In this document: in pieces, positions 1,545-62,814 of the stretch
How positions within the stretch are numbered: the first letter of the stretch is position 1
Layout: every line of letters begins with the position of its first letter
Source of the DNA: Isurus oxyrinchus
Lineage: Eukaryota
Assembly (NCBI GenBank): GCA_026770705.1
Contig: JANJGN010000052.1
Location: 1,240,001 to 1,304,000, forward strand
Length of the DNA: 64,000 nucleotides
Reading direction: 5' to 3'
Notes under the pieces: model-generated
Databases searched by the model: none
The model's input: the letters and a program-made list of their open reading frames with translations, nothing else
What the model was told of the DNA's origin: nothing
Program-made: the position numbers and the translations under genes

Positions 1545-1913
1545 TTGGACTGTCACAAGAGTGGAAAGGTGACACTCCACGAGAGGTGACAGCACAGGAA
1601 GATTCGTGTGTACAGATTCCATGTCATTACAGTTATCCATCACATTTGGAAAGCCGACCACGAGTCGGAGTCTGGTTTAATAACGAGAAACAGATTCCCT
1701 GGGCTCCCATAGCCTTTCACTCCAAGGATCACAGTCACGAGTTACCACGGTTCCACCATCGGACCCGGCTGTCTGGAGACCTGAAAGATGGCGACTGTTC
1801 CCTGATTATAAACAACATCAGACGGGAAGATGCAGGACCTTATTTTTTCAGGATAGAATTTGACAATGGTCCGAGCCATAACTATTACCCTGTAACCCAG
1901 CTTCATGTTTCTG
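1545..1913 (+). CDS. Siglec gene A, V-set (sialic-acid-binding) Ig exon
   Basis: ccag|TT GGA ... TCT G|gtaagt, phase 1/1. Siglec signature CVQIPCHYSYP...W...RTRLSGDLKDGDCSLII...DAGPYFFRIE with the essential F-strand Arg and the Siglec-type Cys layout. Leader exon not found in window. Confidence 0.9.
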
Positions 1914-2313
1914 GTAAGTGCTGTGTTATAATTACTCAACAATTCACATTCAACACTCAATGGGAATTAACACAAACTGTGACGTTTACATATTAACACA
2001 AAACACAGCTTATTATAACACACTGTCTGATTCTCAATAACCTGGTGATAGCTTCCAGTTCAGTCCTAAAGCAACCTCTAATACTCACTTTAATATCAAT
2101 GATTAAATGTATTGACTGTGTCCATCAATGTTATCAGGTTATCCACTCTCATCGATCTCTCTAATCCTGTTTAAAATAATTTCCTGATCATTGTAACCTC
2201 TCAGTTCTGATATCATCCTTGTAAAAGTGCTTTCTCTTGTGGGACTGTGGTTTCTATTTGAGCTGACGCTTCATGATATATTTCTCTAAAAGGATCCATT
2301 CTCTGTCTGTTAG

Positions 2314-2610
2314 ATTTCACAGATAAACCCATGATATTCCCTGCTGAAATTATTGCAGGAAAGCGTGTGGATGTAAGCTGCACCTTCAACACAACGTGCA
2401 ATGGAACAGCAGCACCTGTCTTAACCTGGGACATTCCCACTGACGTACCTGGATCAGTCTCAAACACTGTAACTCAGCATGGTGTCACTCTGACCTATAC
2501 TTCTGTTCTGACCCTGACCCCATCACTCAAACACCACGGACACACTCTCAGCTGCAGAGTGAGATATCCATCTGTTTCATCGGAGCGGACCCTCGTACTA
2601 ACTGTACAAG
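2314..2610 (+). CDS. Siglec gene A, C2-set Ig exon 1
   Basis: gttag|AT TTC...CAA G|gtaagt, phase 1/1; VSCTFNTTCNG (extra interdomain Cys)...LTW...LSCRV. Confidence 0.9.
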
Positions 2611-2814
2611 GTAAGTATGGACATCCTTCATTATACATTCGCTGGAACAGTCTAGATTATGCACAGCAGGATCCCACAGAAAGGTATTCTGATGAGAACC
2701 AGATCATCTGTAATTTACGGAAAAACACTGACCAGAAAACAGTTAATGACAGTTTCTGAACATTAACACTGGAGCTTTTTTTTCCAGCCAAGAAGCTGAT
2801 AGAGCAGAGCATCA

Positions 2815-3620
2815 CTCACAATATACTAACCTCCTGACAATGCAGCACTCCCTCAGTACTGACCGCCTGACAGTGCAGCACTCCCTCAGTACTGATCCTT
2901 CAATAGTGCAGCAATCACTCAGTACTGACCCTCCAACAGTGCAGAACTCCCTCAGTACTGACCCTCTGACAGTGCAGCACTCCCTCAGTACTGACCTGCT
3001 GAAATTGCAGCACTCCCTCAGTACTGACCCTCTGACAGTGCAGCACTGCCTCAGTACTGACCCTCCAATAATGAAACAATCCCTCAGTACTGACTCTCCG
3101 ACAGTGCAGCACTCCTTCACTGCTGACCCTCCAACTCTGCAGTGCTCCCTCAGGACTGAAAATCCAACATTTCATATCTCCCTCCTGACTGACCCTCTGA
3201 AATTACAGCAGATCCTCGGTCGAGACCTTCAAACAGTGCAGCACTTCCACAGAACTGAATCTACCCCCCACCCACAGTGCAGCACTTCCACAGTACTGTA
3301 CCTCTGACAGTGCAGCACTCCCTCAGTACTGATCCTCCCACCTGCAGCACTCCCTCAGTACTGACCCTCCCACATGCAGCACTCCCTCAGTACTGACCCT
3401 CCCACAGTGCAGCACTCCCTCAGTACTGACCCTCCCACAGTGCAGCACTCCCTCAGTACTGACCCTCCCACAGTGCAGCACTCCCTCAGTACTGACCCTC
3501 CCACATGCAGCACTCCCTCAGTACTGACCCTCCCACAGTGCAGCACTCCCTCAGTACTGACCCTCCCACATGCAGCACTCCCTCAGTACTGACCCTTTGA
3601 CAGTGCTGCACTACCTCACT
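2815..3620 (+). repeat. 30-bp tandem repeat CAGTGCAGCACTCCCTCAGTACTGACCCTC
   Basis: Directly visible; other arrays at 4510-4975, 12645-12895, 19340-19890, 26425-26660, 28830-29175, 57410-57630, 60445-60800 and inverted at 39550-39660, 41540-41940. Confidence 0.95.
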
Positions 3621-3629
3621 ATTGGCTTT

Positions 3630-4510
3630 AAACTAAATAGAGTGTGGGGCGAATGTTTCTGGAGAAGGTATATGTACAGTTACAAACCAAAAGGATTTAT
3701 TAGCATTGCAGGATAGCTGTTTTGGCAATGATACCCAGTGTGTGACAGGAAGGGACACAGTGTCCAAACATAAAAATACATCAGCAAATAGTGTCAGAGG
3801 GGGGGAAATGATAAAAAGTCAAAATTAATGGCTCTTTACTTAAATGCACATAGTATTTGGAATGCTGACCTTTATTTCAAAGGGAATGGAGTATAAAAAT
3901 AGGGAAGTCTTGCTAAAACTATGCATGGCACTAGTTAGACCACACCTAGAATACTGTGAGCAGTTTTGGTTCCCTTATCTAAGGAAAGATGTACTGGCAT
4001 TGGAGGCAGTCCAGAGAAGGTTCACTAGGTTGATCCCAGTAATGGAGGGATTTTCATATGAGGAGAGGTTGAGTAGGATGGGCCTGTACTCATTGGAGTT
4101 TAGGAGAATGAGAGCTGACCTTATTGAAACATATAAGATTCTTAGGGTGCTTGACAGGGTAGATGCTGAGAGGTTGTTTCCCCTTGTGGGAGAGTCTAGG
4201 ACCAGAGGGCATAATCTCAGAGTAAGGGGTCACCCATTTAAGACAGAGATGAGGAGTTTCTTCTCTCAGAGGGTAGTGAATGTGTGGAATTCTTTACTGC
4301 AGAGAGCTGCAGAGGCTGGGTCATTAATTATATTCAAGGCTGAGATACACAGTTTTTTAATCAGTCAGGGAATCAAAGGCTATGGGGAAGAGGCAGGAAA
4401 GTGGAGTTGAGGATTGTCAGATCAGCCATGGTGTCATTGAATGGCGGAGCATAGTTGATTGGCCGAATGGCCTCCTTCTGCTCTGACGGCTTGTGGTCTT
4501 ATGGTCTTAT
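3630..4510 (+). mobile_element. CR1-clade LINE 3' end
   Basis: ORF2 C-terminus LVRPHLEYC...QRRFTRLIP...FFSQRVVNVWNSL; ends in a short (cttatggt)-like tail. Confidence 0.9.
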
Positions 4511-5096
4511 CACCCTCCAACAGTGCAGAGCTCCCTAATTACTGACCCTCCGACAGTGCAGCACTCTTCCAGTACTGACCCTTCGACAGTGCAGCATTGC
4601 CTCAGTACTGACCCTCCAACAGTGCAGAGATCCCTAATTACTGACGCTCCGACAATGCAGCACTCTTCCAGTACTGACTCTCCGACAGTGCAGCATTCCC
4701 TATGTACTGACCCTCCAACAGTGCAGCACTGCCTCAATACTGACCCTCCAACAGTGCAGCACTGCCTCAATACTGACCCTCCAACAGTGCAGCACTCCCT
4801 CAGTGCTGACCCTCCGACAGTGAAGTACTCGCTCAGTACTGACTATGCGGCAGTGAAGCTTTCACAGTACCCACCCACCATCAGTACAGCAGGTCCTCAG
4901 TACTCACCCTCCAACAGGGCAGCACTCCCTCAGTACTGACCCTCCAACAGTGCAGCACTCCCTCAGTACTGAACTGAAGAGTCTGCCTGAATTATGTGCT
5001 TTGTGGTGAAGGATTGATATTACACCTGTAACATTGTCAGGGTCTCTGAAAGTGCTTCACAGTCAATGTAAGTAACTGATCTTTATTTGTTTTTAG

Positions 5097-5363
5097 ATGC
5101 ACCACAGAATCTCTCAATTACTTTTCATGATATGATTAACGCTTCATGGATCAATATAATTGAGGGGAATTCTGCAGTGATAATCTGCTCTGTCGAGAGC
5201 TTCCCAGCTTCTAACCTGATGTGGCGACATCTTAATGTCCCAATGAACAGAACAAGTTCCAACAATGAGCTGTGGTTGGTGATTCCTCACGTTATATCCA
5301 GGGACACTGGAGATTATCAGTGTGTGGCAGAGAATGAACATGGAGCAGTGGACGGGTTCATAA
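5097..5363 (+). pseudogene. Siglec gene A, C2-set Ig exon 2, 3' end and donor replaced by a LINE
   Basis: ttttag|AT GCA CCA...IICSVESFPASNLMW...DTGDYQCVAENEHG. Homology to the paralogous exon (which ends ITITVE|gtgagt at 16098) stops at about 5363, where LINE sequence starts. Confidence 0.8.
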
Positions 5364-6420
5364 ACATTCTGTTTTTATTAGCTCATGGGATGTGGGTAGT
5401 GTTGACAAGACCAGAAATGATTGCCCATCTGTAACTGCCCCTTGAGAAGGTGGTGGTGAGCTGCCTTCTTTAACCACTGCAGTCCATGTGGTGTACGCAC
5501 ACCCACAGTGCTGTTAGGGAGGGAGTTCCAGGATTTTGTCCCAGTGATGGTGAAGGAACGGCCGATATATTTCCAAGTCCCAGGGCAGACCACCACCTCA
5601 AGTTCGCTTCCAAATCACACACCACACTGACTTGGAACTGTCTTGGTGGAAGAGGTTAAGGGTTTGGAAGGTGCTGTCGAAGGAACCTTTGTGAGTTGCT
5701 GCAGTGCATCTTGTAGATGGTGCACACTGCTGCCACTGTGTGCCAGTGGTGGAGGGTATGAACGTTTATGCTGGTGGATGGGCTGTCGATCAAACAAGCT
5801 GCTCCTGGATGGTGTCGAGCTTCTTGAGTGTTGTTGGAGCTGCACTTATCCAGCCAAGTGGAGATTATTCCATCACACTCCTGAAATGTGCCTTGTCCGA
5901 TGGTGGACAGGCTTTGGGGAGTCAGGAGGTGAGTTACTCACCACAGAGTTCCCAGCCTCTTACCCGCATTTGTAGCCACATTATTTCCTGTTGCCGGGAT
6001 GTTGCCAGGGCCAATAGTCTTTGCTGTATCCAGTATCATCAGCTGATTCCTGATGTCACGTGGAGTCAATCGAATTGTCTGAAAGCTGACATCTGTGATG
6101 CTGGGACCCTCTGGAGGAGGCCGAGATGGAGCATCCACTCAGCACTTCTGGCTGAACATGGTTGCCAATGCTTCAGCCTTGTCGTTTGCACTGATGTGCT
6201 GAGCTCCCCCATCATTAAGGATGGGGATATTTGTGGAACATCCTCCTCCTGTTAGATCTTTAGTTGTCCATCACCATTCATGACTGGATGTGGCAGGACT
6301 GCAGAGCTTAGATCTGACCCGTTGGTTGTGGGATCGCTTTGCTCTGTCTATAGCATGTTATTTCCGCTGTTTGGTGTGTATGTAGTCCTGTGTGTCACCT
6401 CAGCAGCTTGGCACCTCTGT
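5364..6420 (-). mobile_element. CR1-clade LINE fragment interrupting gene A
   Basis: Same family as 21390-23355 and 54751-56848; typical 3' end. Confidence 0.8.
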
Positions 6421-6609
6421 TATATGTGAATCCTCCTTATAGAAACCTGCATGTACATGGATATTATCAATAAATATTACATAGATATATGTTATTTGTA
6501 TAGACCTTTCATGCATAGACAATATCACTTCACAAGTTCAGAATTACTACATGTACACAGGGAACCATTCTCAAACTGTACCGGAGTCATTCATTGGCTG
6601 ATTTTACAG

Positions 6610-6706
6610 GGCGAGATTCCAATGAATGGAAAGCAGGATTGCTTGGAGCTGGAATCTGTTTGAGTGTTGGACTGAGTGGATTCTTCATCTTCAAGTGTGT
6701 GAGAAA
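6610..6706 (+). CDS. Siglec gene A transmembrane exon (no charge in core)
   Basis: ttttacag|GG...AGA AA|gtaagt, 97 nt: RDSNEWKAGLLGAGICLSVGLSGFFIFKCVRK; same length, phases and splice context as gene C TM exon 62194-62290. Confidence 0.8.
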
Positions 6707-14435: not shown

Positions 14436-14467
14436 ATATTACCCTGTAACCCGGCTTCACGGTTCTG
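14436..14467 (+). pseudogene. Siglec gene B V-set exon remnant (about 348 bp deleted)
   Basis: Flanks align to gene A 1288-1534 and 1883-2110; acceptor and nearly the whole V exon are missing, donor at 14468 retained. Confidence 0.85.
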
Positions 14468-15326
14468 GTAAGTGCTGCGTTATAATTACTCAACAATTCA
14501 CATCCAACACTCAATGGGAAATAACACTAACTGTGACGTTTACATATTAACACAAAACACAGCTTATTATAACACACTGTCTGATTCTCAATAACCTGGT
14601 GATCGCTTCCAGTTCAGTCCTAAAGCAACCTCTAATACTCACTTTAATATCAATGATGAAAAGCATTAACTGTATTATCAGGTTATCCATTCCCATCAAT
14701 CTCTCCTGTCCTGTTTAAAAGTCTGACGTATCGATAAAAGAAAGATGTGCATTTCTGCTGCGCAATTTACCACCTCAGGAGGATCCAAATCCCTTCACAG
14801 CCAATGAAATTATTCCTGAATTGTAGTCACAGATGTTAAACACAGCAGGCAGTTTGTGCACAGCAAGATCCAACAAACCACAAGGTGATAAATCACCCAG
14901 ATCACTGAGGAAATGAGAAGCCAGTGAACTCAAACCTCTGGTCTGATGAAGAGTCATACGGACTCGAAACGTTAACCCTGTCTTCCTCTCCACTGATACT
15001 GTCAGACCTGCTGAGTCTTTCCAGCAATTTTTGTTTTGGTTTCAGATTTCCAGCATCCGCAGTATTCTGCTTTTAACTCCAATCTCTGGTCTGAGCCTCT
15101 TCTCTCATCCAGTGTTCTCAATTCACATGTCTCGGAGTGAACGTGTATTAAGCTGAGAGACAGAAACACTACTGCCAAAGAGCAAGAAAATCTTTCCTGA
15201 TCATTGTAACCTCTCAGTTCTGATATCATCCTTGTAAAAGTGCTTTCTCTTGTGGGACTGTGATTTCTATTTGAACTGATGGTTCACGTTATATTTCTCT
15301 AAAAGGATCCATTCTCTGTCTGTTAG

Positions 15327-15623
15327 ATTTCACAGATAAACCCATGATATTCCCTGCTGAAATTATTGCAGGAAAGCGTGTGGATGTAAGCTGCACCTTC
15401 AACACAACGTGCAATGGAACAGCAGCACCTGTCTTAACCTGGGACACTCCCACTGACGTACCTGGATCAGTCTCAAACACTGTAACTCAGCATGGTGTCA
15501 CTCTGACCTATACTTGTGTTGTGACCCTGATTCCATCACTCAAACACCACGGACACACTCTCAGCTGCAGAGTGAGATATCCATCTGTTTCATCGGAGCG
15601 GACCCTCGTACTAACTGTGCAAG
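15327..15623 (+). CDS. Siglec gene B C2-set exon 1 (intact)
   Basis: 297 nt, about 6 substitutions versus gene A 2314-2610; AG/GT intact, phase 1/1. Confidence 0.85.
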
Positions 15624-15945
15624 GTAATTACATACACTTTCATTCTACATCAGCACTCCCTCAGCGCTGACCCTCTGACAGTGCAGCCCGTTCTCAGTAT
15701 CCACATTCTCAGACCTCTCTAAGTGCTTCAAAGTCGATAGAAGTTAATTGATCTTTATTTGATTATTGCTGAATGAAGAGACAAGCTGTCTAAACTTTAC
15801 ATCTCGCACACACCATTCTCCATGGCAACACCTCCACCTATCAGAGACCACTTGCCAACCAATCAGCACTCTCTTCCCATTAAGTATAAATTGTTGTTCA
15901 CTTTCTGTTGGTAATCCTGTGAACGGGCTTCTTGATTCCTGCCCT

Positions 15946-16098
15946 GACATCTTAATGTCCCAATGAACAGAACAACTTCCAACAATGAGCTGTGGTTAGT
16001 GATTCCTCACATTACATCCAGGGACACTGGAGACTATCAGTGTGTGGCAGAGAATGAACATGGAGCAGTGGAGGGATTCATAACCATCACTGTGGAAC
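15946..16098 (+). pseudogene. Siglec gene B C2-set exon 2, 5' half and acceptor replaced by a ~185-bp insert
   Basis: HLNVPMNRTTSNNELWLVIPHITSRDTGDYQCVAENEHGAVEGFITITVE|gtgagt; homology to gene A breaks at about 15761-15945. Confidence 0.8.
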
Positions 16099-25842: not shown

Positions 25843-25959
25843 CTAATATCTACAGCAGAGACCACAAGTCTCATTTGGTCCTCTCCAATTACAGCAGTTA
25901 CAGCAGAATCTGCAGAGCTGCTGTCTGCCCATTCTCTTCTGGCGCTGCAGCAAGGAGCC
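25843..25959 (-). CDS. HAMP: Hepcidin exon 3 (furin site + mature peptide)
   Basis: Acceptor cctgcttttccag then GGC TCC TTG ... TGC TGT AGA TAT TAG; 39 codons including stop; 8 Cys. Confidence 0.96.
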   Translation of the reverse strand, partial: GSLLQRQKRMGRQQLCRFCCNCCNWRGPNETCGLCCRY

Positions 25960-28900
25960 CTGGAAAAGCAGGAGGACAATAGGTGAGAACATTCCGGAAA
26001 GAAAGAAGGCATCATTTCAATCAGGCGCGTCATTGGAAGGAGGATGGCGCATTTCTATAGCGCCTTTCCCCTCCTCAGGATGGCCCAAAGTGTTCCACAG
26101 CTGATGGAAGGACTTTTTCTGAAGTGAGCTCACCGCTGTAATGTAGAAAACGCAGCAGGCAATTCACGCACAGCAAGATCCCACAAACAGAAATGTGATA
26201 ATGGCCCCGATTTTCAGTTTTTTACCAATGTCAGTTGAGGGATAAATGTTTGCCCCAGGAAAGCAGACATAACTGCATCCCATCCACCCCCCACCACCCC
26301 CTCCACACATACACCCAACTCCTGAAACACTTCATTTAAATTGTGGCCATGGAATCCTCTACATCCATCTGAGAGGGCAGATGTTGTCTCAGTTTAACAT
26401 CTCATCTGAAAGACAGCGCCTTCAACAGTGCAGCACCCCCTCAGTACTGACCCTCCGACTGTGCAGCACTCCCTCAGTACTGACCGTCTGACAATGCAGC
26501 ACCCCCTCAGTACTGACCCTCCGACTGTGCAGTCCCCCGCCGGTACTGACCCTCTGACAGTGCAGCACTCCAAGACTGACTGTCTGACAATGCAGCACCC
26601 CCTCAGTACTGACCCTCCGACTGTCCTGCCCCCCCGCTGGTACTGACCCTCCGACAGCTCGGTAATTTCTCAATTACGCCTGGTGGTCCTTTTAACTCAG
26701 AGCTGAGAGTTGCAGAGAATCGAGCAGACACCCTGAACTGACACTTGCAGTGCAAGTACTGGGAGTGCGCTGGTCATTATCATGCTGCTGTCTGTGGGAT
26801 CTTACAGTGCGCCAATGGCTGATTCTTTTCCCACAGTACATCAGTGACCTCACATGAAAGAAAAAAAGCACTTGATTGTCTGCGAAACAGTTTGGGACGT
26901 CCTGATGTGTTGGAAGGCGCTAGAGAAATGCAAGAGTTGACGTTTCGAGTCCTCATGACCCTTCTGAGGACTCGAAACGTCAACTCTTTTCTTCTCCGCC
27001 AATGCTGCCAGACCTGCTGAGTTTTTTCAGGTAATTCTGTTTTTGTTTTGGATTTCCAGCATCCGCAGTTTTCTTTGTTTTTATAGAGAAATGCAAGTCC
27101 TCTTTGTCTTTCACTCGATCCTCTAAGGTGTCTGTTGATTAACCAGCCTCTCGGTGTATGATGTAGGCCTGGTTATAAACAGTTAGAAGGATCAAATATC
27201 AAAAGTGCTTTGGCTGACAGTCAAACCGATTGTGCATTCGGAGAGATTAGATACGGTCTGCGCACAATGACTCCAGTCTCTGGCACTGACTGCCGCCTGG
27301 GGTCTCCCTTCCACATAACACTCACAACTTGCATTTACACAGCGCCTCGGACATTGCAAAATGTCCCAGCCCACATTACCGGAGCGTAAATCAGAGAGAA
27401 GTCTAACACTGAGTCACATATGGAGATATTAGGGATAGGTGACCAAAAGCTTGGTCAAAGATGTCAGTTTTTAAGGAGCGTCTTAAAGGAGAGAGAGAGA
27501 GAGAGAGAGAGGCAGAGAGGTTAAGGGAGGGTATTCCGGAGCTCAGGGCCCCAGGCCGCTGAAGGCACGGCCACCAATGGTGGAGCGATGGGGATCAGGG
27601 GGACCCGGGAGATGCAGTAATGTCAGAGATTTTGGAGGAACATCGGGACCGGAGGAGGTGTTCTCCTGCTCCATATCTCTCTCTCTCTTCCTCTCTTCCA
27701 CTCCTCCTCTCCCTGTCTCTCTCTCTCCTACTCTTCCTCTCAATTGCCCTCTCTCCCAATCTTTCTCTCCTCTCTCCCTTTTCCTGTCTCTCTCCCTCTC
27801 TCTCCCCTGTCTCCTTCTCCCACTCTGTATCTCTCCCTCTCTCTCACACTATTTTTGTAACTTTCGCTCACTCTGTAACTCTCCCTTCCCTGTTAATTTC
27901 TCTCTCTTGGACAATCTCTCTTCCCTTTTCACTTTCCCTCACTCTGCATCTCTTTAATTTCTCCCTCTGTCACTCTCTCCCACCTATGTTCTTTCCCTTT
28001 CATCCCTCCCCGTCCCACTCTGTGTCTCTCTCTTCCAATCCCTCCCTCCCCCATTCCATCCCTCTCTCCGACTCTCGACTCCCAGCCTCTCTTTAACCCA
28101 CTCCCAGGCTGGATCAGTCTCCCTCTCACTATTCCCGGCGTGGGTTACATTTAAAATTCCTGTGGGGATATGTTCACTTCCTTGGAATTGCCTCTTCCCA
28201 GCTTTGCAAAAAAAGGGTGGGGGGGGGGGTCTCGATTTCAAACATGCCTCCTGAGTATAACCGAGACAGACTGCCACTGAAATCAGCTTGAAATCAGAAA
28301 ACTTTCTGTGGAAGAAACGAGCAGGGAGAAACCTTAAAATAAGGAATGAATTTCCACCTACCGTGTCCGGGGAATCCACAGATTTCTCAATCGTCGAAGA
28401 ACCTAAAGCAGTGTCAACCTGCAAAAAGAAAGAATTTATCAGGGAGAAAGTGAGAGGAGGATTGAGGGAGAGGGAGAGAGAGAGAGAGAGGTACAGGAGA
28501 GAGAGGGGGAGGAGGACAGACTTGCATTTCTCTAACGCCTTTCACCACATCCCAAAGCATTTCACAGCCACTGAAGGATGTTTTTGAAGTGCACTCACAC
28601 TGTAGGAAATGTGGCAGCTGATTTGTGCACAGCAAGATCCCACAAATAGCAATGTGATCATGGCCTAGATCATCTGTTTTTGGTGATGTTGGGTGAGGGA
28701 TAAATATTGGTCCCAGGACACCGGGGAGAACTCCCCCTGCTCTTCCTCCAAATAGTGGCTGTGGGATCTTTCACACCCGCCCGAGAGGGCAGACGGGGGA
28801 CTCGGTTTAATGTCTCATTCAACATTGTTGTGCTCCCTCAGTACTAACCCTTTGACACTGCAGCACTCCCTCAGTACTAACCCTTCGATAGTGCTGCACT

Positions 28901-30384
28901 CCCACAGTATTGTCCCTCCGTCAGTGCAGCGCTCCCTCAGTACTAACCCTTTGACACTGCAGCACTCCCTTAGTATTAACCCTTCGATAGTGCTGCGCTC
29001 CCTCAGTACTGTCCCTCCGTCAGTGCAGCTCTATTTCAGTACTAACCCTTCGACACAGCAGCACTCCCTCAGTACTGACCTCCGACAGTATAGCACTCAC
29101 TCAGTACTGTCCCTCCAATAGTGCAACACTTCCACACTACTGACCCTCTGACAGTCCAGCACTCCCTCAGCACGGAGTGTTGACCGACGTTATGGGACTG
29201 AATTCCCTGGAGTGAGACTCAGACCAGAGATTTAGGTAGGGTTGTTCCGGCTGGAGGAGGTTACAGAGATAGGGAGGGTTGTAGAGGCTGTAGGAGGTAA
29301 CAGAGATAGGGAGGGTTCTAGAGGCTGTAGGAGGTGACAGAGATAGGGAAGGTTGTAGGGGCTGTAGGAGGTTACAGAGATAGGGAGGTGAGTAGGGGCT
29401 GTAGGAGGTTAAAGAGATGGGGGGGGTTGTGGGGGCTGGAGGAGGTTACAGAGGTAGGGAGGGTTGTAGAGGCTGGAGGAGGTTACCAAAATAGATACTG
29501 TTGTAGGGGCCATAGTAGGTTACAGAGATAGGGAGAGTTATAGTGTGGAGAGGACGTTATAGAGTTCATGAGCATTGTAGGGGCTGGAGGAGGTTACAGT
29601 GATTCTGAGGGTCGTGGGGCCTGGAGGAGTTTACAGAGATAGGGAGGGTTGTAGGGCCTGGAGGAGGTTACAGAGATAGGGAGGGTTGTAGGGTCTGGAG
29701 CAGGTTACAGAGATAGGGAGGGTTGTAGGGTCTAGAGGAGGTTACAGTGATCATGAGGGTTGTGGGGCCTGGGGGAGGTTACAGAGATAGGTAGGGTTGT
29801 AGGGGCTGGAGGAGGTTACAGAGATAGGGAGGTTTATAGGGGCTGGAGGAGGTTACAGAGATAGGGAGGGTTGTAGGGGCTGGAGGAGGTTACGGAGATA
29901 GGGACAGTTGTAGGGGCTGGAGGAAGTTACAGAGATAGGGATTGTTGTAGGGGCTGGAGGAGGTTGCAGATATAGGGAGGGTTGTAGCGGCTGGAGGAGG
30001 TTACAGAGATAGGGAGGGGTGTAGGGGCTGGAGGAGGTTACAGAGATAGGGAGGGTTGTAAGGCCTGGTGGAGGTTACAGAGATAGGGAGTGGCTGAGGA
30101 GGGATTGAAAACAAGAATGAGAATTTCAGGGGAAACGACAGAAGGAAATGATGTTAAATTCATAGAGGGCGACAATATTAAAGGCACGAACATAATAATA
30201 TCAAACTGCGGAAGAGACCAGTCTATCTGGGTGGTAGACGTAGAGTCATGTGCAAGAAACACCTCACCCAGAGGGACATCTCTTAGCTTACCCTCGACAA
30301 GGAGAAGAAGTGACTCAGCTGCAGGGAGAGCAGCAAAGTCAGAGTGAACAAGACAAGTCGCCATTTCATCTGGGAGCTTCCCAT
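25843..30384 (-). CDS. HAMP: Hepcidin-like prepropeptide, 3 coding exons: 30384-30292, 28418-28362, 25959-25843 (88 aa)
   Basis: Spliced product MGSSQMKWRLVLFTLTLLLSLQLSHFFSLSR|VDTALGSSTIEKSVDSPDT|GSLLQRQKR-MGRQQLCRFCCNCCNWRGPNETCGLCCRY*. Signal peptide, acidic propiece, furin site RQKR, hepcidin 8-Cys pattern C-x2-CC-x-CC-loop-C-G-x-CC. Both introns are GT-AG and phase 0. TATA upstream. Confidence 0.93.
28362..28418 (-). CDS. HAMP: Hepcidin exon 2 (propeptide)
   Basis: ttctttttgcag|GTT...ACG|gtaggt; 57 nt, phase 0/0, VDTALGSSTIEKSVDSPDT; size typical of hepcidin exon 2. Confidence 0.8.
29240..30090 (+). repeat. 37-bp G-rich minisatellite in hepcidin intron 1
   Basis: GGAGGGTTGTAGGGGCTGGAGGAGGTTACAGAGATAG tandem units. 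Confidence 0.95.
30292..30384 (-). CDS. HAMP: Hepcidin exon 1 (signal peptide)
   Basis: ATG at 30384 (second in-frame ATG at 30369), hydrophobic core LVLFTLTLLLSL, donor AGG|gtaagc phase 0. Confidence 0.85.
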
Positions 30385-30454
30385 CTCTGCCTGTCTCTTC
30401 TGATCTTCTGGCTCTGCTTTGATGCTTTGGTTTGTAACTAGAGGAGCTTCCTGC

Positions 30455-30530
30455 TCTTATACCTGAAACACTTGAAGGGGACAGCCGGGGGCGGGTTGCT
30501 GTGTGGTATCACACCCATTTCTGGATATTG
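30455..30530 (-). promoter_or_regulatory. Hepcidin proximal promoter
   Basis: TATAAGA at 30461-30455 about 75 bp upstream of ATG; GC box GGGGCGGG near 30488-30495; RUNX-like TGTGGT 30502-30507; degenerate STAT-like ATCCAGAAATG (minus) near 30516-30526. Confidence 0.55.
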
Positions 30531-31019
30531 CAGTGTCGATGTTCCCTGTCCCACTGGCCTGGGACCAGCAGTAAGGTCACTGGGACATTGACTGTCTGGC
30601 ACCGAGAACTATCATTCCCTCCGCAACGCCCTTCACCTTGTGCAGATATGTGTTCATATTGACGCAACACAACATAGCAAAAACAGAGGGGCTGGTTCTT
30701 ATGTTGGCAAATCAGGTGAACCGCATGCCCCCTAACCCCTTACTCCTCTCATTGCTACACTTACTATTTTACAAATTGTGTGCGTTGCTTTTATTTTGGA
30801 CAAGGGGCCTCGAGGGGGAACTGATTTACGCTGAGGTTTAGGGGTTAACTGTTTACCATGTGGAGACTGTCTGTCACCAGCTTTGTTCATGGTTTATCCA
30901 GGAACATTGAAGGGCATGAACGTTCTTGCTTTGTATGGAACAAGTTACCAACTGGGTTCAGTCATCGACTCAGACTCACATCAACATAAACTGGCTTCTG
31001 ACAGGTAAGTTTCTATTAC

Positions 31020-31620
31020 ATGAGGGTAGGAGGAGGCCATTTGGCCCCTCGAGCCTGCTCCACCATTCAATGAGATCATGGCTGATCTGCAAACTAGCCC
31101 CATATGGCTTTGTCCCATCTCCTTTAATACCTTTGGATAACAAAAATCTATCAGTCTCACAGGTTTAAAATGAACAACTTGATCGTGCATCAGTTCCTGT
31201 TTGGGGAAGAGAGTTCCAAATTTCTCCCACCCTTTGTACTTCCTAATTTAATTCCTTTTTAGGCTCTGACCCTGAGTCCCAGACTCCTCCCAACCAGGGG
31301 AAATGGTTTCTCTTTATCGCCCCCGATCTGTTCCCCTTATTATCATGCGAACTTTCATCAAATCTCCTGCTTAACATTCTAACTTCCAGGGAATACAAGC
31401 CGAGTTTGTGTTTAATCTCTCCTTGTGATTTAACCCTTGGAGTCCCGGTCTCATTCTGGTAAACTGACACTGCTCTCCCTCCGAGGTCAATATATCCTTC
31501 CTAAGGTGTGGGGCCCAGAATGTCTCACAGTGACTCCAGGTGTGGTCTAGCCAGGGCTTTATGTAGACTGAAGCATGACCTCTGCCCCCTTATATTCTAA
31601 TCCGTGAGATAGAAAGGGCA
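31020..31620 (-). mobile_element. CR1 LINE 3' fragment
   Basis: KLGLYSLE, GLEYKGAEVMLQ remnants. Confidence 0.75.
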
Positions 31621-32719
31621 GAGTTCCAGAATTGTTGTGTTTATTCGACAACAGAATAACAGAGGAAGGTTTCCTCTCTGCCCTCTTCAGCCCCACTGGG
31701 AAGGTCAGGATGAGAAGGTTGGGCTGGGTCCCCTGTACTGGACACTCGCTGAATCTTCCAATGATAGTTCTGGGCTGGATTTCAAAATGCATAGACAAGG
31801 ATTCAGTGTTCCATCACATTCTGCCTTTGTCTCTTTTCCTCTCGTTCTCTTTCTCTACCATCCTCTCTCTCTATCTATCTATCTTTCTCCTCATTCTCTC
31901 CTGCTTCATCTCTATCACTTTCTTTCTACTTCTTTGTGTGTCTCTGTCTGTCTCTCTCTCTCTCACTCTTTCTTTCCTTGTCCTTATCTCTTTCAGTGTC
32001 TCCCTCTTTCTCTCTCTCTCTCTCTCTCTCTCTAAATGTGACCCTCTCTAACAGTTTGGCCCAGTACTCTTATTTCCCTGTTTTACTGGTGTTCCATTTG
32101 AAGGTATACAAGACCAGATCAGACCAGAATGTTTATTTTCCAGTGTTTACTGTGTTTTTTTTCATTCTGGGTGTCTCTCGACTCTGTCTGTCCCTCTCTG
32201 TCCTTTTATTTCATTCTTTCATGTGATGTGGACATCACTGCCTAGGCCAGCATTTATTGCCCAACCCTAATTGCCCTTGTTCAGAGGCCACTTTTTAAAA
32301 GTGAACCACATTGCTGTGGGTCTGGAGTCACATGTAGGCCAGACCAGGTAAGGACAGCAGATTTCCCTCCCTAAAGGGCATTTGTGACCCAAATACAAGA
32401 ATCAGCAATGGTTTCCTGGTCATCATCGGACTTTTAATTCCAGGTTTTTATTGAATTGAAATTCCACCAACTGCTGTGGTGAGATTCTAACCAGGGTCCC
32501 AGGAGCATTACACTGGGTCTCTGGATTACTGGTCCAGCGAAAATACCATCAGGCCCCCTCCTCCCCACTCTTCCCTTCCACCATCTTTCACAATCGCTCT
32601 CTCTCTCTCTCACTCTCCTTCTCTCTTCCCCCTCTCTCAGTCTCTGTCTGTCTCTCAATCTCTCTATCGCTCTCTATCTCCTGGAGGCTCTCTCTCTGAC
32701 TGTCTCCCTCCCTATATCT

Positions 32720-33330
32720 GTAACCTCCTCTCTCTGTCCCTTTCCTCCAGCCCCTACAACCCTCCCTATCTCTGTAACCTCCACCTGCCCCTACAATCCT
32801 CCCCATCTCTGTAACCTCCTCCACCTCCCACAACCCTCCCTATATCTGTAACCTCCTTCACAAGCCCATACAATCCTCCCTATCCCTGTAACAACCTCCA
32901 GCCCGACAACACCCCTATACATGTCACCTCCTCTAGCCACTGTAACCCTAATAATCTCCCAAGCCTCCACCAGCCTTGACAATCCTGCCCATCTCTGTAA
33001 CATCCTCCAACCACCACAACCCTCCCTATTTCTGTAATCTCTTCCAGTCCCTACAACCCTCCCTATCTCTACAACCTGCTCCACCCCCTGCAACTCGCCC
33101 TATCTCTGTGTCATCCTCCAGCCCCTACAACCCTCCCTATACCTGTAACCTCCTCCAGCCCCTACAACCCTCCCTATCTCTGGAACAGCTTCCAGCACTT
33201 ACAACCCTCCCTATCTCTGTAACCTCCTCCAGCCCCTACAACACTCCTTATCTCTGTAACCTCCTCCAGCCCCTACAACCCTCCCTATCTCTGTAACCTC
33301 CTCCAGCCCCTGTAACCCTCCCCATCTCTT
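32720..33330 (-). repeat. Same 37-bp minisatellite, inverted
   Basis: CTATCTCTGTAACCTCCTCCAGCCCCTACAACCCTCC units. Confidence 0.9.
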
Positions 33331-34194
33331 GAAGGGTTCTCAAAATTTCCAACTGTCAAGGAACCCTGGGTTGGTGAGCATGACCCCTGACCTCTCCTAG
33401 TGCAATTTAGTTAGGGTTTGGGGGTGGGACAAGGGTAAGGGCATTAGTAGCGTGATTCTCCCTCGTTATGCCGTGTGTTCCCCATTCTTAACTCAGTGTA
33501 CTTTGTAAGTCTGTATAATCTCAGTGTCATCCTAATGTTATAAGTTCATTTGTGACTTCAGTAAACTCAGTTTTTGTCTTGCACCAAAACCAGTTGTCTG
33601 CTGCACTTTGTGACAAGCCCCGAATAAGTCCAAGGTCTAGAACCCAGGGATTGGGAGTGATTCAGACGGCTCAGAAGTCGCAGGTGAAGCTGACACACAC
33701 CACCACACCCTACAAGGGGCTGAATGGCCTCCTCCTGTTCCTGTATAACGGACATAAGTGGCAGAATGGCCTCCTCCTGTTTCTGTGTAACAGTCTTGAG
33801 GGGGCTGAATGGCCTCCTCCTGTTCCTGTGTAACAGTCTCGAGGGGGCTGAATGGGCCTCTTCTGGTTCCTGTGTAACAGGCTCGAGGGGACTGAATGGC
33901 CTCCTCCTGTTCCTGTGTAACAGGCTCAAGGGGCTGAATGGCCTCCTTCTGCACTGTAAACTTGTTGTGATACTGTAACTGCCTCTTTGGTTTCATTCAG
34001 CTGAATCTTCAGCTCTTCAGTCTCTTCCTTGTATCTCTTGCCTTCCTCCTGGAACATTGGACATGGTTGGGTCTTCCCTGCCAACTGTTTCTTCAGTTTG
34101 CTCAGAGCGGCACAGAATTCGCTTTCTTTCTCTTCAGGATTTTCCAGTGGAACCAACTCTGACCTGAGGGACACTTGCAGCCTGTGAGGATGCT

Positions 34195-35322
34195 TCAATT
34201 CTTCAAACTCATTCCGAGATACACTCTCATATTCCCCCAGCAACTCAGCAACTCCTCCAGTGAAACATTTCAGAGCAGCTGAGCTTGGTTTTCTGGAACC
34301 AGTCTCGGCCCAGAAGACTAGGGCCCTCACCTGTCGCTATGATCACTGGAAGCTGGGCTGTCTGCTGCCTGTAGGACACAGGTACTGGGATGAGGTCCTT
34401 TCCCTGTATGGATTCTCCAGTGTGTGTCTTCAGCTGATCCATTGTTGGCTCTAAATTCAGCGTCTGGGTTCCTTCATTTAGCTGTTTAAATGTGGGCTCT
34501 TCCACCACTGTGTCTGAGGCTCCCGTATCTGCCCCATTACTAGTGGCTGCCCATTCACTTGGGTTGTGATGGTTATAGGTTCAGTTTTTACCACTGTGAC
34601 ATTGGACAGGGAATAGACATCGGTATCAGCAGCTTCAGGCTCTGTGATATTATTCACTTCCATCATGTTGGTGCACTGCCTGATGGGCTGTCTCGATTTC
34701 ACCCTGCATTGCTTTATTACCCGCCCCTTTCTTGTGGCAGTGATGGCATTCTGCCCCCTTGAACCTGCAGGTGTCCAGTACGTGCTCAATGCCCCCCACA
34801 TCGAGAACAGGCCAACTTCGGAGTTGCTGCTGAAATACTCCCACGAAGCCTTTTAGTTTCTGGAGCGGCAGAGACTGTCTCTCGCTTGGCGGCTGTCTCT
34901 CTCTCTCTCTCTCTCACTCCAGTTTGAGCCTCACGCCCGGTGGTTGGTTCCTGTCCCAGCTGAGGACTGGTGCCATGTTGTACATCCTGTAAATCCCGCC
35001 AGTCTCTCCCAGCACTTTCCATGCCTGGCGCTATTTCCATGGTGCGCTTCAAATCGATGTCGGCTTCTGCGAGTAAACGGCTCTGAATGGCGTTGGGGTG
35101 AACGACACAAACCAATCGGCCCCGCAACATGTCATTGAGTGTGTCTCCGAGGTCCCAGTGCTCAGTCACCTGCTTCCACTTCACTGTATAGGTTGCGATG
35201 GACTCTCCCTGGGCCCTTACTCTGGAGTTAAACTTAAACCTCTGCATTATTACCCACGGCTTCAGCTGAAAACACATCTTCATGAGGTCGACTAATTGGT
35301 GAAAAGATTTAGAATTGGGTGC
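34195..35322 (-). mobile_element. Decayed Gypsy/Ty3 LTR-retrotransposon internal fragment (gag, zinc knuckle, protease)
   Basis: QRFKFNSRVRAQGESIATY...LNDMLRGRLVC (gag); CRFKGAECHHCHKKG; frameshifted DTGAS and SLLGRDW protease motifs. Confidence 0.85.
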
Positions 35323-62193: not shown

Positions 62194-62290
62194 TTTCTCA
62201 CACAGATGAAGATGAAGATTCCAGCCAGGAAAACACTCAACATGATCCCAGCCGTGAACAATCCTACTGTCCATTTACTGGAGTCTCTAC
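62194..62290 (-). CDS. Siglec gene C transmembrane exon (neutral)
   Basis: ttttacag|GT AGA...AGA AA|gtaagt: GRDSSKWTVGLFTAGIMLSVFLAGIFIFICVRK, phase 1/2. Confidence 0.88.
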
Positions 62291-62814
62291 CTGTAAAAAC
62301 AGCCATTAATTACTGCACTACAGTTTTACAATGATGCTCCGATGTATCTCGAGAAGCGATACACTCACTCAGTGTTTAAATACTCATTCTCGGGCACGCT
62401 GACATTTATTGTCCATCCCTAGTTTCCCCTTGAGAAGGTGGTGGGGGGTCTTCCTCCTGAACCACTGGTTTGTCCCAAACTGGGAGACCAGTTCAGAGGG
62501 CAGGTAAGAGTTAACCATGTTGGTGTTTGAGACTGGAGTCACATATACACCCAGACCAGTTAAAATGGACAGGTTTCGCTCCCTTAAGATCATTAGTGAC
62601 CCATATTATATATGTAATTTCTATATATATGTATCAACTACCCTCCCTCAAATAATCAATTATCACCTCAATTTCACTCTGTTGTTTGTGGGATCTTGCT
62701 GTGCACAAATCAGCTGTTGCATTTCCTACATGATGACAGTTAGCTCACTTTGAAACTGCTTCACTGGTTATCGAGCGTTTTGGGAATTCCTAAGTATTTT
62801 ATCAACGCAAGTCT

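Follow-up and report, generated by a model that had tools for sequence, protein, structure and literature searches.

The cartilaginous fishes are the outgroup needed to learn whether hepcidin was originally a defence peptide or an iron hormone. A stretch of shark DNA of 64,000 nucleotides, analysed in full and referred to here as the window, carries a hepcidin gene whose product has a long hairpin loop with an N-glycosylation sequon. The locus raises two questions, namely whether the sequon is used, and whether the peptide acts on ferroportin or serves in defence.

A spliced hepcidin gene on the minus strand

The window carries a genuine spliced hepcidin gene with an unusual loop. Its predicted coding sequence of 88 codons is divided over three minus-strand exons, in phase 0 and separated by GT-AG introns. 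Of the 24 sequencing runs listed, 20 cover part of the stretch, and four were compared, one for each of organisms A to D. The gene has the following features:

30456..30461, minus strand: TATA-like box found by motif scan, 77 bases 5' of the start codon, with a presumed promoter function
30292..30384, minus strand: coding part of predicted exon 1, 31 codons for a hydrophobic predicted signal peptide and the start of the prodomain, phase 0, GT donor
28362..28418, minus strand: exon 2, 19 prodomain codons, flanked by AG and GT, phase 0
25843..25959, minus strand: coding part of exon 3, with the end of the prodomain, the furin motif, the 29-residue mature peptide and the stop codon (25845-25843)
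25933..25944, minus strand: proprotein-convertase motif R-Q-K-R, fitting RX(K/R)R
25915..25932, minus strand: first six codons of the mature peptide, hypervariable, without His3 or a hydrophobic residue 4
25867..25890, minus strand: eight-residue loop between Cys14 and Cys23, with a Gly/Glu polymorphism at 25880 and a 6-base deletion (25876-25881) in organism C
25867..25875, minus strand: N-E-T sequon, a putative glycosylation site, unchanged in four of four organisms

Exon 3 matched the Pfam family Hepcidin (PF06446) with 31.2 bits, above the curated cut-off of 27 (E 2.7e-7). The precursor has the order hydrophobic leader, prodomain, R-Q-K-R and mature peptide, with the signal peptide judged from hydrophobicity alone; RX(K/R)R is the convertase motif of hepcidins (PMC3325200). 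Both the precursor (88 residues) and the mature peptide (29 residues) fall inside the ranges given for fish hepcidins (81-96 and 19-31 residues, PMC3978493). The mature peptide contains cysteines at positions 7, 10, 11, 13, 14, 23, 26 and 27, all eight within 21 residues at its C-terminus, and their spacing is that of hepcidin except for the length of the loop. The unmodified mature peptide of the window allele, with four disulfides, has a computed mass of 3411 Da, and the net charge counted from sequence is +3 (+2 for the Glu allele, and about 0 in organism D). A single hepcidin copy was found in the 64-kb window. The window contains runs of N at 40798-41041, 43145-43279 and 53278-53418, none of them within the hepcidin gene.

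A search of the PDB with the mature peptide, at E values up to 10, gave two matches, both hepcidins (bass 1s6w and human 1m4f). Bass HAMP2 was the best match (E 0.16). Its eight residues from C7 to C14 are identical to those of the shark peptide, and the two also share P-N in the loop together with a sequon (N-M-S in bass), and the lack of a HAMP1-type N-terminus. Human hepcidin-25 (HAMP; PDB 1m4f, 2kef and 6wbv) resembles the shark peptide in its eight Cys, which are spaced identically between C7 and C14 and again beyond the loop, and the genes are alike in having three exons, a furin motif and MAG/Siglec-type genes nearby. The shark peptide differs from it in length (29 vs 25 residues), in its loop (8 vs 4 residues) with an N-X-T sequon, in lacking His3, Phe4 and Pro5, and in an N-terminus that is variable between close relatives.

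Searches of protein collections with a 38-57-residue query (a 31-100-residue set, a 73-2000-residue set, and 1.84 billion representatives at E 0.001) returned 0 homologues. Teleost hepcidins were likewise missed, so that the empty searches reflect low sensitivity for a short Cys-rich query and not absence. In the ESM Atlas, the values were 0.75 for a hepcidin cluster and 0.76 for gallidermin clusters, all below 0.9 and to be read as leads only. A Cys-pattern scan of metagenome contigs gave 23 loci, of which one was a hepcidin (L010, MDSP01004450.1) and none was a shark-like hepcidin. The L010 exon is teleost HAMP2-like, with a loop P-N-M-R-G that has no sequon, and the contig is probably fish DNA inside a metagenome sample. 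Two AlphaFold2 models of the peptide, made from the single sequence with no alignment, were helical, with pTM of 0.36 and 0.34, do not inform on how the disulfides pair, and were rejected.

Splicing was examined in run X1, which was taken as RNA by guess (it has no library record) and whose contig depth is not usable as an expression level. Nine contigs of this run depart from the stretch at 25960, and by eye their letters match the 3' end of exon 2, showing that a form with exons 2 and 3 spliced exists. Contig depth also steps at the exon 3 acceptor, from 4e5-8e5 in the exon to 1.3e3 in the intron. Within intron 2, organisms C and D have 22 extra bases at 26007 that are absent from the window, A and B.

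Variation in the loop and the N-terminal segment

The loop residues N-W-R-G-P-N-E-T, which lie between the fifth and sixth Cys (Cys14 and Cys23), are encoded by 25890-25867 of the minus strand. This confirmed an earlier sequence-only reading, which had claimed an eight-residue loop of this sequence with an N-E-T sequon, against four residues in human. The human loop consists of H15, R16, S17 and K18 (Table 2 of PMC5702341; PDB 1m4f alignment). The description of the loop as doubled holds against human (8 vs 4), but not against fish, whose loops already have five residues in sea bass Hamp1 and Hamp2 (PMC5665920) and in five of five seabream peptides (PMC12255565).

The loop is not fixed, and shows both Gly/Glu variation and a change from eight to six residues among close relatives. 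Position 25880 encodes Gly in the window, and Glu in organisms B and D and, in run X1 with about two thirds of the depth, in organism A. Because organism D also has Glu, this is probably the older state. In organism C, the 6-base deletion at 25876-25881 leaves a six-residue loop. A deletion placed there, or at the equivalent place +1 base, keeps N-E-T, whereas a start one base lower would not.

A stronger signal than the sequon, overlooked in the sequence-only reading, is the excess of change in the six N-terminal codons of the mature peptide. Compared with the window, the exon 3 coding sequence differed at 11 of 111 bases in organism C, vs at most 1 of 169 non-coding bases (Fisher p 2e-4), and at 9 of 117 bases in organism D, vs at most 2 of 169 non-coding bases (p 9e-3). 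One difference in each organism, tallied without a position, was counted as non-coding. The N-terminal 18 bases held 7 of the 11 differences in C (p 2e-4) and 5 of the 9 in D (p 4e-3), and residue-changing codons held 10/11 and 9/9, respectively. Each organism is represented by one contig (depth 8.3 in C and 5.2 in D), and the two comparisons are not independent, since C and D have seven differing sites in common. The N-terminal replacements are G2S and R3Q in both organisms, Q4R and L6M in C, and Q4H, L6V and R8M in D. Residues 3 and 4 are R3/Q4 in the window, A and B, Q3/R4 in C and Q3/H4 in D; positions 3-5 of the window peptide are R, Q and Q.

Single-contig or minor variants were seen at two further positions. 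In organism C (run X11), the single contig, of depth 8.3, has Gly in place of the final Arg of the furin motif (25935). No R-X-K/R-R site would then remain, which may be explained by an allele, by an error or by a prohepcidin that stays uncut. In run X1, three contigs show a minor variant at 25910, with about 10% of the contig depth, that would alter Arg8. It falls on a base that also differs in organism D, and may reflect pooled animals, an allele or an error.

The segment that changes fastest corresponds to the one by which human hepcidin binds ferroportin, where F4A and I8A are inactive, and H3A, P5A, I6A and F9A decrease ferroportin activity 5-7 fold (PMC5702341). Sea bass Hamp1, with His3 and a hydrophobic residue 4, lowers ferroportin, while Hamp2 does not (PMC5665920). 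Positive selection in the mature region is reported for teleost HAMP2, and not for HAMP1 or mammalian HAMP (PMC3325200). A HAMP1-type N-terminus, with His3 and a hydrophobic residue 4, was present neither in the window nor in organisms A to D, and the mature region departed from HAMP1-type conservation by its excess of replacements in the two related comparisons. The fast-changing N-terminus and the missing His3 and hydrophobic residue 4 point to a role in defence like that of HAMP2. The question of hepcidin origin becomes testable with a shark hepcidin in which the N-terminus that binds ferroportin is missing and the most rapid change falls in this region.

Like sea bass Hamp1, the shark peptide has six residues before the first Cys, Arg8 followed by an aromatic residue 9, and a single copy; unlike the shark peptide, Hamp1 has the ferroportin-type residues 3 and 4, a five-residue loop without a sequon, and no positive selection (PMC3325200, PMC5665920). 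Accelerated change in the mature region is shared with acanthopterygian HAMP2 (PMC3325200), which differs in its five-residue loop and is described only from acanthopterygians and often as multiple copies (PMC3325200, PMC3978493), against one copy in the window. Taken by analogy, these comparisons suggest a likeness to HAMP2 in the pattern of change and in the way of working, and do not place the shark peptide in the acanthopterygian HAMP2 clade.

The N-E-T sequon and its predicted occupancy

N-E-T is the only N-X-S/T sequon in the 88-residue precursor, and its Asn79 lies nine residues before the C-terminus. The middle residue is not Pro, no Pro is present at +3, and the protein is predicted to be secretory. 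With approximate residue frequencies, the chance of a sequon in a random eight-residue segment is about 3%, which makes its presence uncommon, and unremarkable alone.

The sequence-only reading had proposed a glycosylated hepcidin, to be checked by looking for loss of the sequon in relatives. The proposal survived this check, in that N-E-T was present and unchanged in all four organisms, even in organism C with the two preceding codons deleted. This retention is weak evidence because the organisms are close. Their non-coding difference is about 1%, and 13 of the 27 possible single-base changes would destroy N-E-T. Neutral survival of the sequon was calculated as 0.90-0.95 if changes accrue at the non-coding rate, and as 0.45-0.67 for the coding rate. 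Retention in four of four organisms is within this chance range (0.45-0.95), and was rejected as proof of selection.

The residues flanking the sequon were scored with the observed/expected table of PMC6683751 (Table S5), which derives from human-cell data and in which a negative score marks a suboptimal site. Controls gave -0.01 for a published value of -0.007, and -2.24 for a published value of -2.39. N-E-T scored +0.41 in the window, +0.07 in the Glu allele and +0.76 in organism C, where the deletion spares the sequon and raises the score.

A sequon in the hepcidin hairpin loop is not new, as the corresponding loop of bass HAMP2 contains N-M-S (PMC5665920), a site that scored poorly, at -1.9. 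By contrast, 0/5 seabream peptides carry a loop sequon (PMC12255565), so that such sequons come and go. In 2002, Shike reportedly found that native bass gill hepcidin matched the bare (unmodified) sequence. Bass hepcidin was isolated from gills (PMC2866484).

The shark site nevertheless belongs to a class with occupied members. STT3B/MagT1 glycosylates sites that lie in the last 50 residues or are bracketed by disulfides, after translocation, for example N453-V-T of hemopexin (PMC4137057), and occupancy of the shark site is plausible on this ground. The sites in hemopexin and SHBG resemble it as N-X-T near the C-terminus and bracketed by disulfides (PMC4137057). Both are large plasma proteins, whereas the shark sequon sits within a core of 21 residues for which four disulfides are predicted. 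On the basis of these sequence features, we put the probability that Asn79 is at least partly N-glycosylated close to an even chance. With a length of 462 residues for hemopexin, its N453 site would lie nine residues from the end, as in the shark peptide.

If present, an N-glycan on the native loop would have no earlier report for any hepcidin within the literature searched. It would mark a position that tolerates a large group, which is relevant to longer-lived hepcidin mimics, and synthetic or bacterial versions would misrepresent the native shark peptide. Nurse shark plasma contains hepcidin, in a proteome that was searched without glycan or deamidation (PMC9207270), and PMC6795676 and PMC3832898 treat hepcidin only in general terms or in references. 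No literature on shark, skate, elasmobranch or glycosylated hepcidin sequences was found in a search that covered subscription journals, a frequent home of fish and shark peptide papers, only thinly.

Defence peptide, iron hormone or Siglec ligand

The reading that we favour, tentatively and at somewhat less than an even chance, is a secreted HAMP2-like innate-defence hepcidin that is at least partly N-glycosylated on its long loop. The signal peptide would lead the precursor into the ER, where STT3B/MagT1 would add a glycan to Asn79 after translocation and before the four disulfides close, with the longer loop giving room for it. Furin would cleave after R-Q-K-R, and the released peptide would face pathogens in the manner of HAMP2 rather than serve as a ferroportin ligand of the classical type. 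The main effects of the glycan would be to protect the loop and to delay clearance. A net charge between +3 and about 0 is low and a poor fit to a cationic antimicrobial, and would decrease further with a sialylated glycan. Bacterial membranes are not permeabilised by human or medaka hepcidin according to PMC3978493, which together with the low charge also weighs against plain cationic killing. The earlier suggestion that W-R in the loop could aid membrane binding is unsupported on the same grounds, and the low net charge led us to reject W-R as a membrane anchor. A more far-reaching proposal is doubtful, namely that sharks have the first glycopeptide hepcidin, its loop lengthened for an N-glycan and its N-terminus freed from, or racing with, ferroportin under pathogen pressure, and that the peptide is long-lived and, if sialylated, possibly a Siglec ligand.

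The same defence-type hepcidin could carry an incidental, unoccupied sequon if its core folds before the transferase arrives, with the long loop reflecting ordinary drift in length where the peptide is least constrained. We consider this rather unlikely. It would account for a loop that goes from eight to six residues among close relatives and has four or five in human and teleosts, for retention of the sequon within chance, and for the bass HAMP2 loop sequon, which is reportedly unoccupied. Human loop residues 15-18 tolerate alanine (PMC5702341), and disulfide formation restricts STT3B access in Cys-rich domains (PMC6683751), as this explanation would have it. It fits less well with an N-X-T whose flanking score is non-negative, unlike that of the bass site, with the deletion in organism C that spared the sequon and raised its score, and with the known occupied sites of the same class (PMC4137057). 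The peptide could also be the iron hormone of this animal. It would then act on a shark ferroportin co-evolved with a different N-terminus, while the loop, glycosylated or not, would face away and tune half-life; we judge this unlikely. The gene is the only copy in the window, in a seemingly ancestral HAMP position, and may therefore be the sole hepcidin, which must then control iron; for organisms B, C and D, each run likewise yielded a single contig at 80% or more. The position among MAG/Siglec-like genes is like that of mammalian HAMP (PMC4453067), and the detection of hepcidin in nurse shark plasma (PMC9207270) agrees with a circulating hormone. A dye on human residue 17 retains full potency, but longer linkers there are inactive (PMC5702341), so that a full glycan may hinder binding. 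An iron hormone is also difficult to reconcile with a receptor-binding segment that is the fastest-changing part, unlike in HAMP1, and that lacks His3 and a hydrophobic residue 4. In the human hepcidin promoter, GGCGCC and TTC-N3-GAA are BMP/STAT3 control motifs. Neither of these, nor a C/EBP or NF-kB consensus, was found in the 6 kb upstream of the start codon (30385-36400), where two loose STAT-like sites lie at -1078 and -5636. This absence may be a weak hint against classical BMP/STAT3 control.

The remaining alternative concerns the neighbouring genes, which flank the hepcidin gene on both sides:

1556..6700, plus strand: Siglec-like gene of the left flank, with a V-set exon carrying the F-strand Arg, C2-type exons and a transmembrane exon
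57049..62314, minus strand: Siglec-like gene ends of the right flank, with a transmembrane exon 76% like the left one and two tyrosine-motif tail exons

A sialylated loop glycan could make the peptide a soluble ligand for these Siglecs, joining acute-phase signalling to inhibitory receptors, which we consider very improbable. The left V-set exon is indeed Siglec-like, matching Siglec-5 with E 3e-15 and keeping the Arg aligned with the Siglec-5 F-strand Arg, a residue that functions in sialic acid binding, and the sequon is a plausible acceptor. No Pfam family was found for the right-flank tail exons, the tyrosine motifs of which we take to be ITIMs. The proposal requires both occupancy and sialylation, and with one N-glycan the peptide would be a weak, monovalent ligand amid the many plasma proteins that are sialylated. 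Mammals have the gene order USF2-HAMP-MAG-CD22. HAMP, USF2 and MAG lie near FFAR2 in mammals (PMC4453067), and mammalian HAMP near MAG has no loop sequon, so that the neighbourhood is independent of the sequon. Since mammals share this closeness of HAMP and MAG, old synteny probably explains the Siglec neighbourhood, which is then no evidence for a sialylated ligand. The hepcidin-Siglec link proposed earlier has nothing behind it beyond position, and the gene neighbourhood was rejected as proof of a Siglec ligand. A search for literature on HAMP/MAG/CD22/Siglec synteny found none.

Repeats and duplications were observed elsewhere in the window. An array of 7.3 kb (45938-53201) consists of 623 copies of a 12-base purine/pyrimidine-skewed unit; it contains stop-free frames of up to 2453 codons, and is probably not coding. 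At 14437-16087 (plus strand) lies a partial duplicate of the left Siglec-like gene. Its first C2 exon is 98% identical, but the match covers no more than 33 bases in the V-set exon and roughly half of C2 exon two, and the duplicate looks like a broken copy. The tail exons of the right flank (57049-57291 and 60061-60303, minus strand) are in tandem and 88% identical, with two tyrosine motifs each, the first of which differs between them.
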